Source: a bacterium | GTDB taxonomy: Bacteria > UBA10199 > 2-02-FULL-44-16 > JAAZCA01 | Length of the DNA: 64,000 nucleotides | Direction: 5' to 3' | Assembly: GCA_021810905.1 (NCBI GenBank) | Contig: JAJZQH010000011.1 | Coordinates: 4,358 to 68,357 of the forward strand | In this document: piece by piece, positions 30,901 through 33,900 of the stretch | Numbering within the stretch: the stretch's first letter is position 1 | Layout: the number at the start of each line of letters is the position of its first letter | Notes under the pieces: model-generated | Told to the model about the DNA's origin: nothing | What the model saw: the letters and a program-made list of their open reading frames with translations, nothing else | Database searches by the model: none | Translations under genes and position numbers: made by a program

Positions 30901-33900
30901 TCCGTGACCGTGCTATTGCCGAGCGGCTTGATCACGCGCGTGAGTCGTTCGCCCGGATCAAAGCGGAATTCGGTGATGACGTAGTTGTCGGGCGTGGTCT
31001 CGTCCTCGCGCAGGATCGGCCGATTGAGCATATTGTAGGAGGTCTTCGTCGTGATCCAGAGGTCGCCTGCGTCAACGCTGCCGGGCCGGTCGGCGCGCAC
31101 GAGGTTTCCTTCCGCGTCATAGGTATTGCGGGTGATTGCGCCCGCCGCGTCTGCGGTCTCGATGACTCTGCCCAATTGGTCGAATGTGTTGTGAGCAACA
31201 GCGCCGCTCGCGTCCGTGATCTTTATGGGATTGCCCACGGAATCGTATTCGTACGTCGTTCTCAATGCGAGGCCGGCGGGATCGACGGTCTTGCTCTCGA
31301 GCAGCCCCCTCTGATTTCCCAGCGCATAATACGAATAAGCAGTCTCGGTTCCTACTGGATCAATTTCCGAAATCAGCTGACCATGTTCATTGGATCGCAT
31401 GAGCCTTCGCACGACCTGCTCGTTGCCATGCAGGTCGTGCACGAGCGGCTCGTCCACTCGCACCGCATTCCCACGCATATCGTTCACGACTCCGTCCGCG
31501 TTCAGATCTCCCTGTGCAAGTGGGACGTCCGCAAATATGGCTGCTGCCACTGCTTCGGATACCCCCATCTCAGCGGCTAGCTGCGCCGTCGTTGCGCCCT
31601 CCTGATAGTCATACCACATCGTGCGCGTGAGGCCTGCCTTCGTCTCCGTAAGCGGCTGCATGGCCAGCGGCTCGTATGTGAACGAGGTTTCAACGACACT
31701 TCCGCCGCGCGCAGCGTCCGGCACGCGTCTGATCAGCACGGGATTTGCAGCGAAGAGCCTGTCCACCGTGGAATCGCCGCTCTGCATCTGCTGATACGCG
31801 ACCTCTATTTTATTGCCGGCGGGTTTTGTCGCGGAGGTAGTGAGTCCGTTGAGATCGTAACTGTAGCGCGTGACGAATTCCGCTGGATCGCCCTGCCTGA
31901 GCCCGCGCGTATATTGATGGATCGCGAGCGCGTTGCCCTGGCAGTTGAATTCGTGCAGGCGCTCGTTGCCGTTGCGGTCGATGATCCGAGTGCGGGAGGC
32001 AACGCGATTCACCTCTTCCTGCGTCTCGCACGCGGGCCAGGCGCCCATCATCGTGGACTGAATAGTGAAGATGCCGTCGCCGAATCGATGCCAGACGAGG
32101 CGGTCGGAGAAGCTGTACGCGAATTCGACGTACTTCTGGCCAAGCGAGTCGGTGACGGAGATGAGGTTGTGGTTGAGCATCTCCTTATCCAGGGGATAAC
32201 CGGAGGAGTATGCATACGTCGTGGTCGTGCCGTTGGGAAACGCCGCGGTCGCGGGCTCGGTAAATGATGTCAAATTGTTCGTGATGTCATAGCCGAATCG
32301 GAGTTTCCGGCCCGTAAAATCCTCCACTTCAACGAGGTGTTTGCCGCTGTATCTTAGCGAGATCGTCCGATCCAGCGTATCTATCACGCGAACCAGATGC
32401 CTGTCTTTTCCGCTCCCCTCGTATTCGAGCCGCATGCGGTTGCCGAAGCGGTCCTCGATGGCCGTGCAGAATCCGTCGGGCGCATAATAATTCGTGACGC
32501 CGTGATTATCGCGAATCGTCACGGTCCCATCGTCGTGTCTCACGAGCCGATCGAAATAACCGAGCGGCGCGCGGAAATAATTGCCGGCCTCGTCGTATTC
32601 GTACGCATCGAAGCGCGCGTTCCCGTCGAAGCGGATGTAGCAGGCGATATAATCCTCAGGCTTTTCGTTCCATTTCACTTCCGCGCAGCAGGTGTCCAGC
32701 GGATTAGCCTCGCAGTAGGCGCGATCGATCTTCAGGAGACGCTTATTGTAGTTGTGATCCCAGTTGTAGCCGATAGGCCCGTCGTACTCAATGCGGCTGC
32801 GGTAGGTGCGTACGAACTCAAAATCCATTCCCCGGCCGGGAATCTTGAGCGCGCGCTCCACGTTCAGCACCTCCGCATTGTGAAGCGTGATCGGATCGCC
32901 GTCGGTCGTGCGGGAGTCGGGGGTCTTGGAACCGGCGCGTTCTTGGACCTGTCGATTTGCGGTATCGACTGACTGCGTACGATCGCCGGAAACCTCCATA
33001 TCCGCCGTCCTGCCGCCGACAAATACCTGCTCCACGACATCATACTTTTCGAAGCTCGTCCCTTTAGCAGGATCATTATCAGCCCAGCTATCGCTTGCGC
33101 TTCCCGGGTCATTATTTGCGGGAGCACCTGCAATACTCGTTCCGTCACCATTTTCCTCGTCTAATCGATCGCTTCCTAAAGATGGCAACGAACTAATGAT
33201 CGAGCCGTTCATGCCCGCCTGATCCCAATGCATATCCTCCGCAGGCACATTTGCAAAATTTACAAGATCATACAAACCGTCATACGTAGGAGAAAAAACA
33301 GCTACAGGCATATCATATGTTCGATAGGGAGGTCTCGATGGCTTTGACGAATCATCATCATGATCGTTCGTATTATTAGAACTGCCGCCATTCCCCTGGC
33401 CTGTATCGCCACCGCGTTGATCCTGCCCTTCGCCGCACCCATCACCAGCACAACCGCCTTCGTCACCGCCGCCATCACCTTCGTCTGAAGGATAGGGCAG
33501 AACGACGCTCCCGCCACCGCTCTTACCCGCATCGCCTCCCCACATCTTCGCCTTAACCAGATACCAGCCGAAAATATCGCGTGAACCGAAGGGATTGTTC
33601 GAAGCATAAACGTATGGATTCGTTCCCTCATCAAGTGGATCTGGAGAGATAAAACGCCCAACGAGAGGATCATAATATCTACCGCCAAAATAGACGAAAC
33701 CAGTTTCACTATCATAGCGTTTCCCAGCGAAACGATAATTGTTCTCGTTATTCGCAATTGAAAAATTCACATTCCCGAACGGATCGTAGCGATAACCCGA
33801 TGTCACATTTCCCTGTTCGTCCATCGTCAGAAGTGTAGACCCGATTTCGTCTACGCTGAAAAAATCGACGCGTTCATCATCAAGAGCTGCAATACGATGT

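Follow-up and report, generated by a model that had tools for sequence, protein, structure and literature searches.

What does an RHS core end do in the middle of a protein? RHS cocoons are usually viewed as one shell holding one toxin, and the question is raised by a single open reading frame (ORF, 27915-38036) on the minus strand of a 64,000-nucleotide (nt) stretch of bacterial DNA (contig JAJZQH010000011.1, positions 4,358 to 68,357 of the forward strand; hereafter the window). The ORF encodes a protein of 3,373 amino acids (aa) from a GTG start and contains both an odd core-end motif, NNPFGSRDIFGW at 33564-33599, and the Gly-rich stretch that follows it. The first-pass annotation had placed a degenerate RHS cleavage motif and a Gly/Asp/Ser-rich linker at 32900-33570, an interval that covers the segment after the motif, while the motif itself reaches 29 nt beyond 33570; it had also proposed that the replacement of the Pro after the Asp by Ile should block aspartyl autoproteolysis. 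The odd motif proved to be real, and we are nearly certain that the protein has a tandem architecture with a conserved variant motif between its two units. The element is probably the internal joint of a tandem two-cocoon RHS polymorphic toxin, Sec-exported by the look of it, whose internal autoprotease would still be competent.

Two matches to the RHS repeat-associated core model TIGR03696, at 76.3 and 84.7 bits against a cut-off of 32.5, indicate that two cores are present in the single ORF, and since NNPFGSRDIFGW closes the first of them well above the cut-off, it is not a chance match. RHS_repeat (PF05593) matches ten stretches of the ORF (E 4.4e-105), Y.YD..G motifs lie in aa 716-1417 and aa 1812-3125, and unit 1 opens with a divergent plug-like segment (about aa 64-97, KIDLYTGGLSVSKTDLSIPGR). 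Alignment of unit 1 with unit 2 gave 24% identity across 844 aa (E 4e-30), so that the units are old paralogous spirals and not the result of a recent duplication. In a Pfam scan of the ORF only RHS_repeat and DUF6531 exceeded the cut-off, with RHS (PF03527) and zf-RNPHF as sub-threshold matches. Unit 2 fits the usual pattern, with a 162-aa tail, a small membrane-like ORF (27599-27889) and orphan cassettes; unit 1 has no directly adjoining variable toxin domain and immunity gene, and is followed by a linker and the second RHS unit instead. The remaining core ends in the window, ADPYGL, TDPFGE, FDPFGT and YDPLGL (Table 1), all keep D-P, as had been noted at first, and the strict PxxxxDPxGL form is found in unit 2 (ADPYGL), whereas unit 1 reads D-I-F-G-W.

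A phmmer search with the 101-aa core-end segment against 1.84 billion representatives was headed by proteins of 3,184-3,995 aa, each with two matched stretches. Alignments and locus scans together gave a tandem family of at least 17 metagenomic proteins, some of them cut by contig ends, and the same uninterrupted two-unit layout recurs in 17 proteins of varied sample and taxon origin (31-64% identity among the aligned full-length sequences); the named loci belong to Deltaproteobacteria, Pseudobdellovibrionaceae, Pseudomonadota and unclassified metagenome-assembled genomes. The internal core ends of these 17 members follow the consensus [DE]-[IVLYQ]-[FYM]-G-[WLFM]. The acid at position 1487 is D in 12 members (RDIFGW in the window, RDVFGW twice, MDVFGW, QDVFGW, RDLFGL, RDIFGF, SDQFGL, KDIFGL twice, KDIYGL and EDYFGL) and E in five (QEVYGM, EEYFGM, EEYFGL, EEYMGL and EEYMGM), and the next-but-one residue after it is F or Y in 15/17 and Met in 2/17. 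R1453, D1466 and P1467 are invariant across a 15-sequence alignment, G1490 is invariant in both family alignments, and the P1 residue is bulky and hydrophobic throughout the family; the window protein retains R1453, D1466, D1487, G1490 and W1491.

Pro follows the acidic residue in none of the 17 internal ends (0/17), in all of the readable terminal ends of the same tandem proteins (10/10, DPxG) and in 95 of 112 control ends (absent in 15%), the controls being chiefly terminal or orphan ends that come closest to the family profile, taken from a word-index junction-profile search in which 8,000 candidates were scored and the long tandem proteins did not come up. Fisher tests of the internal ends gave p = 1.9e-7 against the terminal ends and p = 1.3e-11 against the controls, values in which independence is overstated, as the internal cores go back to a common ancestor. 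Pro was also absent from the terminal site in 9 of 23 unrelated RHS proteins from the first search. The internal motif is thus set apart from the other core ends, as first claimed, but the word degenerate does not suit it: on the alignments it is a conserved lineage-specific variant of PxxxxDxxG, [DE]-hydrophobic-[FY]-G-hydrophobic, and not a decayed one.

Related proteins show where else such ends occur. Single-unit relatives of the unit 1 core read D-[LAF]-[FYH]-G-L (FDLFGL, RDLYGL, FDLYGL, VDLYGL, FDAYGL and IDAYGL), and the tails that follow are 217-287 aa long, several with GHSxGG lipase-like motifs. The 120 best listed relatives of unit 2 range from 1,005 to 2,618 aa, mostly within 1,700-2,600 aa; inspection of eight showed what looked like single-unit proteins, except P0025 and P0026, which are tandem, and short Pro/Gly-rich stretches precede the plug in single-unit relatives. 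P0026 is complete: a signal peptide is followed by a first RHS part of only ~480 aa that closes with a canonical VDPLGT, then by 224 aa of linker and an entire unit 2. Canonical internal DPxG motifs were found in other, unrelated tandem or partial-tandem layouts, namely P0283 (SGS-like), P0163, P0166, P0267 and P0026, and hydrophobic transmembrane-like stretches follow them in P0283, P0166 and P0267. As P0283, P0163, P0166 and P0267 keep an internal DPxG, the internal position alone does not force the loss of Pro. The best Protein Data Bank (PDB) match of the window core-end sequence was mosquito SGS1. The core-end motif of P0283 (NSPISLVDPDGE) resembles that of SGS1, and both proteins are about 3,350 aa long.

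Whether a core end of this kind can still cleave was considered in the light of the characterised RHS autoproteases. The conserved motif of TcC proteins is PxxxxDxxG, in which cleavage was lost on mutation of the Asp or the Gly but did not depend on the first Pro or several further conserved residues, and a large hydrophobic P1 was preferred (PMC7861908). Substitution G677A led to a partial loss of cleavage, and the conclusion drawn by the authors was that cleavage needs no specific recognition sequence (bioRxiv 10.1101/590430). In the PDB chains, the self-cleaving TccC2 reads ...NNPVSLQD-E (D660-E661) and RHS2 reads ...KD-NDG. The catalytic set of RHS cores consists of a conserved Arg and two Asp (PMC13018210; PMC8765631), and RhsA cleaves after the Trp of DPxGW, with density ending after W1350 (PMC8765631). 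Given that the Pro after the Asp is absent from 15% of the controls and from TccC2, which cleaves itself, it is typical of RHS cores and not defining. The proposed block of autoproteolysis by Ile is hence unsupported: a Pro-to-Ile change alone cannot be taken to prevent cleavage, and the window protein, as far as its sequence tells, keeps every residue reported to matter. By analogy with these enzymes, the internal site may well retain cleavage competence. The internal aspartyl autoprotease would then cut after W1491, as at the internal site of Streptococcus suis WapA-CT1, which is reported to be cut at its internal Rhs core end, giving four fragments (PMC12704120).

The linker behind this site (222 aa; G 16%, D 13%, S 10%; net charge -23) was described correctly at first as Gly/Asp/Ser-rich, and its spacer-like character was borne out. 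Pfam and NCBIfam scans gave no match to it, known toxin domains included; its mid-part is 24-38% identical to that of the closest homolog, P0001, compared with about 80% in the junction flanks; and an AlphaFold2 (AF2) model of aa 1250-1900, built from a 4-sequence alignment, had a mean predicted local distance difference test score (pLDDT) of 37.9 and of about 21 in the linker, a weak pointer to disorder. It contains no hydrophobic run of transmembrane length. GGCAGDGCGEG, which had been singled out as a feature of the linker, is deleted in P0001; CxxxxC or Cx(5-6)C pairs occur in 6-7 of 10 family linkers (window protein, P0025, P0146, P0148, P0150 and P0153), though not at homologous positions, and P0001 and P0147 have none. 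Tandem repeats were looked for in the linker DNA and none were found, which rules out a tandem-repeat expansion.

Linker length is 222-292 aa in the 16 measurable family members, and the ten linkers with tabulated composition are Gly/Ser-rich and usually acidic. Conservation is limited to the residues after the motif (WYL.KA.MWGG in the window's clade), a loose hydrophobic patch and the last ~25 aa before unit 2. A hydrophobic run resembling a glycine zipper, for example GDVVSDVVGAVVGVVVGVVTGVITGNP, begins the linker in the E-type subfamily (P0150, P0154/L005, P0158 and L008, with Glu at the second catalytic position), whereas the linker of P0147 (QEVYGM), the fifth Glu-bearing member, starts with a Trp-rich stretch. 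The linker end has the consensus DP[IV]xLHxG[DE], whose D, P and L stay unchanged across 10 family members, and resembles PVxxxxGE, the N-terminal cleavage motif of Rhs effectors of type VI secretion systems (T6SS; bioRxiv 10.1101/2024.02.26.582050), suggesting that the linker may lie between two processing sites. Unit 2 of the window protein reads PITLHNAE at this place, with I for V and A for G, the family consensus being DPVxLHSG[DE]; the unit 1 counterpart, KIDLYTGG, lacks both the Pro and the acid. A second processing site may lie at DPITLHNAE, where unit 2 begins; cutting at both would yield cocoon 1, a Gly/Asp/Ser-rich peptide that is either set free or retained, and the toxin-carrying cocoon 2.

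The GC content at third codon positions (GC3) is 0.47 in unit 1, 0.49 in the linker, 0.73 in unit 2 and 0.38 in the C-terminal tail, with a step from 0.54 to 0.80 at about aa 1700 (near window position 32940), the background GC of the window being about 0.55-0.60. The same step is seen in the two closest homolog loci (L002 and L003) and is absent from more distant members. Identity to P0001 is about 55% in unit 1 and about 75-90% in unit 2. As the linker shares both GC3 and divergence with unit 1, it goes with unit 1 and occupies the spot normally taken by a C-terminal tail. It may accordingly be pictured as part of the unit 1 module, in the usual place of a C-terminal toxin, although it looks like a disordered tether and not like an enzyme. 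Unit 2 would have a history separate from that of unit 1, and the pattern is consistent with two RHS genes having fused in frame long ago. The nearest homolog shares just ~53% identity, with synonymous sites saturated. A recent gene conversion involving unit 2 and the adjacent RHS gene was ruled out, given their identity of just 26%.

Literature searches for tandem, double or two-core RHS proteins found only S. suis WapA-CT1 (3,158 aa; PMC12704120). Similar to the window protein as we read it, WapA-CT1 is Sec-exported, exceeds 3,000 aa and has two Rhs domains that each close with a core cleavage motif, as well as a C-terminal toxin. Unlike the window protein, it has a LysM/cell-wall-binding N-terminus, a sortase link, a single DUF6531 and canonical TDPSG at both sites, and its second Rhs domain comes directly after the first cleavage site, whereas the window protein has the 222-aa linker, a DUF6531 of its own in unit 2, the non-Pro internal motif and, in the Pfam scan, no anchor or LysM domain. 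TcC proteins (TccC2, TccC3, YenC2 and RHS2) share with it the Arg/Asp/Asp autoprotease core, PxxxxDxxG and a bulky hydrophobic P1, and two of them also have a residue other than Pro after the Asp (D-E in TccC2, D-N in RHS2); they differ in that one cocoon is formed with TcB, docks on TcA and keeps the toxin within. SpvB, TcdB and TcA-type domains were absent from the ORF and from the scanned window ORFs (Pfam), and a split cocoon of the TcB-TcC type was ruled out, because unit 1 carries a core end of its own and unit 2 a plug of its own.

T6SS Rhs effectors (RhsA of Pseudomonas protegens, Rhs1, TseI, Tse5 and Tse15) combine an N-terminal plug and a C-terminal autoprotease in one cocoon and are processed twice, at PVxxxxGE and at DPxG[LW], a layout that unit 2 also has (bioRxiv 10.1101/2024.02.26.582050). 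Their N-termini are PAAR, prePAAR or VgrG-linked, whereas the window protein has a signal-peptide-like N-terminus and an extra RHS unit before the plug; PAAR, prePAAR, VgrG-linked or T6SS domains were found neither in the ORF nor in the neighbouring ORFs scanned with Pfam. In teneurins, as in the window protein, an Rhs-associated core plugs the YD shell, and in the animal proteins an internal linker follows the core (PMC5851990). They differ in that the catalytic motif is lost and FN-plug and NHL domains are present; neither domain was found in the window protein (Pfam), and the TEN_YD-shell matches among its relatives are generic. Bacterial teneurin-like proteins keep DPxG and cleave (PMC13018210).

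Several points weigh against a joint that still cleaves. The AF2 junction model is too poor (mean pLDDT 37.9) for active-site geometry, and the 17 internal motifs stem from one ancestor, so that their counts are not independent. The distribution of Pro (0/17 internal, 10/10 terminal) suggests that the two sites are under different constraints; Glu stands at the second catalytic position in 5/17 members, one of which, L008, lacks the motif's first Pro as well, and the Glu together with this Pro loss could reflect a relaxed catalytic constraint. In addition, a cocoon 2 of 1,500 aa cannot fit inside cocoon 1, so that the chain must leave cocoon 1, and such an exit has precedent only in uncleaved teneurins, whose chain threads out of the YD shell after an internal linker of ~125 aa (PMC5851990). 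The Pro contrast within the same proteins, the Glu members and the teneurin precedent would all suit a teneurin-like hinge that does not cleave, in which a dead internal core plugs cocoon 1, the chain comes out of the shell uncut and the linker, as a flexible covalent tether, holds both cocoons together, cocoon 1 serving as scaffold or binding module for the toxin-bearing cocoon 2; the covalent link would also account for the retention of two units in one ORF over deep divergence. We regard such a hinge as possible, though on balance rather unlikely. Teneurins do not cleave and have lost the catalytic motif (PMC5851990; PMC13018210), whereas in the tandem family the Arg, the first Asp and the Gly are retained, together with a carboxylate at the second position and a bulky P1, and TcC does not require the residue after the Asp (PMC7861908). 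Moreover, the same motif variant precedes enzyme-like toxin tails in single-unit relatives, and the FN-plug and NHL domains of teneurins were not detected.

The linker could instead be the cargo of cocoon 1, that is, a released membrane-active or otherwise functional Gly-rich peptide acting before cocoon 2 delivery or aiding it. Its length in the 16 measured members lies within the size range of encapsulated RHS tails, it is flanked by a core-end motif and an N-terminal processing-like motif, its GC3 and divergence match unit 1 as would be expected for a unit 1 tail, and both the glycine-zipper-like opening of the E-type linkers and the mid-linker hydrophobic patch common to several members point the same way. 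The window linker, however, is strongly acidic, of low complexity and devoid of a transmembrane-length hydrophobic run, matches no family and is poorly conserved; the downstream orphan cassettes match the unit 2 end only, and no immunity-like gene can be assigned to the linker because it is internal to the ORF. We therefore hold this explanation to be improbable. The joining of two adjacent RHS genes by an assembly error or frameshift, or the fusion of a pseudogenised upstream RHS gene with the gene beside it, with a dead core end and junk sequence as the remains, might be suspected from the metagenomic origin of the contig, from the sharp GC3 change at the linker/unit 2 boundary, as expected at a fusion point, and from the shortened first RHS part of P0026. 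Such an origin is barely credible, since 17 proteins share the uninterrupted layout across samples and taxa, the core-end domain scores well above its curated cut-off and the junction flanks are about 80% identical to those of P0001; an ancient gene fusion is compatible with the two-cocoon toxin that we favour, and a recent artefact is unsupported.

A broader speculation is that two-cocoon RHS proteins constitute a delivery class of their own. Cocoon 1 would then serve for processing or launch and not as a toxin container, and its specialised core would hold the linker peptide or release it conditionally; this we consider doubtful. It is likewise doubtful that the Gly-rich, partly hydrophobic peptide tethers cocoon 2 to the target envelope or helps its translocation. 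If true, such a class would give RHS toxins a Sec-dependent route that needs no T6SS, in Bdellovibrionota-like and related uncultured bacteria. In any case, the tandem two-cocoon RHS toxins, Sec-exported by their appearance, are a family not described before. Two full shells in one chain pose a topological problem, as a chain begun in shell 1 has to go on into shell 2. Each protein is also a natural side-by-side comparison of two autoprotease sites, one always DPxG and one never, and the outcome at the internal site would tell how much of the DPxGL motif is needed and inform on the assembly and delivery of Sec-exported RHS toxins that have no T6SS or TcA partner. For annotation, the absence of Pro from a core-end motif should not be read as a sign of an inactive protease.

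Table 1. Features of the tandem RHS locus (coordinates are those of the window).
Feature	Residues	Coordinates	Strand	Basis or remark
Tandem two-unit RHS protein		27915..38036	-	ORF of 3,373 aa, GTG start; RHS_repeat E 4.4e-105
Signal-peptide-like N-terminus (...AFTAHA/LP)	aa 1-32	37941..38036	-	Judged from sequence; similar N-termini in other tandem-family members
RHS unit 1	aa ~64-1491	33564..37847	-	Clear YD repeats aa 716-1417; 24% identity to unit 2
RHS repeat-associated core of unit 1	aa 1417-1490	33567..33788	-	TIGR03696, 76.3 bits (cut-off 32.5), E 1.9e-21
Arg in unit 1 core domain	R1453	33678-33680	-	Within unit 1 core domain
Asp in unit 1 core domain	D1466	33639-33641	-	Within unit 1 core domain
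Asp in unit 1 core domain	D1487	33576-33578	-	Within unit 1 core domain
Internal core-end motif NNPFGSRDIFGW	aa 1480-1491	33564..33599	-	Predicted scissile bond between W1491 and Y1492
Inter-unit linker, 222 aa	aa 1492-1713	32898..33563	-	Gly/Asp/Ser-rich, net charge -23; no Pfam or NCBIfam match
GGCAGDGCGEG with CxxxxC pair, inside linker	aa 1527-1537	33426..33458	-	Sequence position
DPITLHNAE, start of unit 2	aa 1714-1722	32871..32897	-	Resembles T6SS Rhs N-terminal cleavage motif PVxxxxGE
DUF6531 plug of unit 2	aa 1713-1771	32724..32900	-	Pfam PF20148, E 4.1e-13
RHS unit 2	aa 1714-3211	28404..32897	-	TIGR03696, 84.7 bits (cut-off 32.5)
Canonical unit 2 core end NNPVLWADPYGL (ADPYGL)	aa 3200-3211	28404..28439	-	ADPYGL itself at 28404-28421
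C-terminal Gly-rich tail, 162 aa, presumed toxin domain		27918..28403	-	After terminal cleavage motif; no Pfam match
Small ORF after main tail, 96 aa		27599-27889		Membrane-like; candidate immunity gene
Orphan cassette 1: unit-2-type core-end fragment (TDPFGE) and DUF4329 tail		26479..27579	-	82% nt identity to unit 2 core end; TDPFGE at 26887-26904
Small ORF after cassette 1, 123 aa		26074-26445		Lipoprotein-like; candidate immunity gene
Orphan cassette 2: unit-2-type core-end fragment (FDPFGT) and Gly-rich tail		24957..26027	-	85% nt identity to unit 2 core end; FDPFGT at 25281-25298
Small ORF after cassette 2, 78 aa		24708-24944		Membrane-like; candidate immunity gene
YDPLGL core end of upstream RHS gene	aa 1979-1984 of that protein	~38866-38883	-

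Both orphan cassettes lie downstream of the tandem ORF (Table 1) and match the unit 2 core end only, indicating that unit 2 is the polymorphic, toxin-bearing unit. The C-terminal tail of the window protein resembles the tails of P0145 and of orphan cassette 2. After the plug of unit 2, a Cys-rich insertion of ~25 aa (YCEANPLDTCCAEVKWNEKPEDYIACY; aa ~1773-1800, window ~32640-32720) was observed, which occurs only in the clade of the window protein, P0001, P0145 and P0025.

Upstream, the gene at 38347-44817 (minus strand) encodes a single-unit RHS protein of 2,156 aa with a DUF6531 plug and the YDPLGL core end; its C-terminus is a YkuD (L,D-transpeptidase-like) domain, and it is 26% identical to unit 2. 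Further away in the window, an IS200-like transposase gene (46965-47633) adjoins a Ser/Thr kinase gene. On the other side of the tandem ORF, a subtilase-domain protein of 1,306 aa is encoded at 19639-23559, and its end is overlapped by 4 nt by the gene at 9947-19642, whose 3,231-aa product carries FlgD-Ig, Big_13 and CHU_C-like domains.

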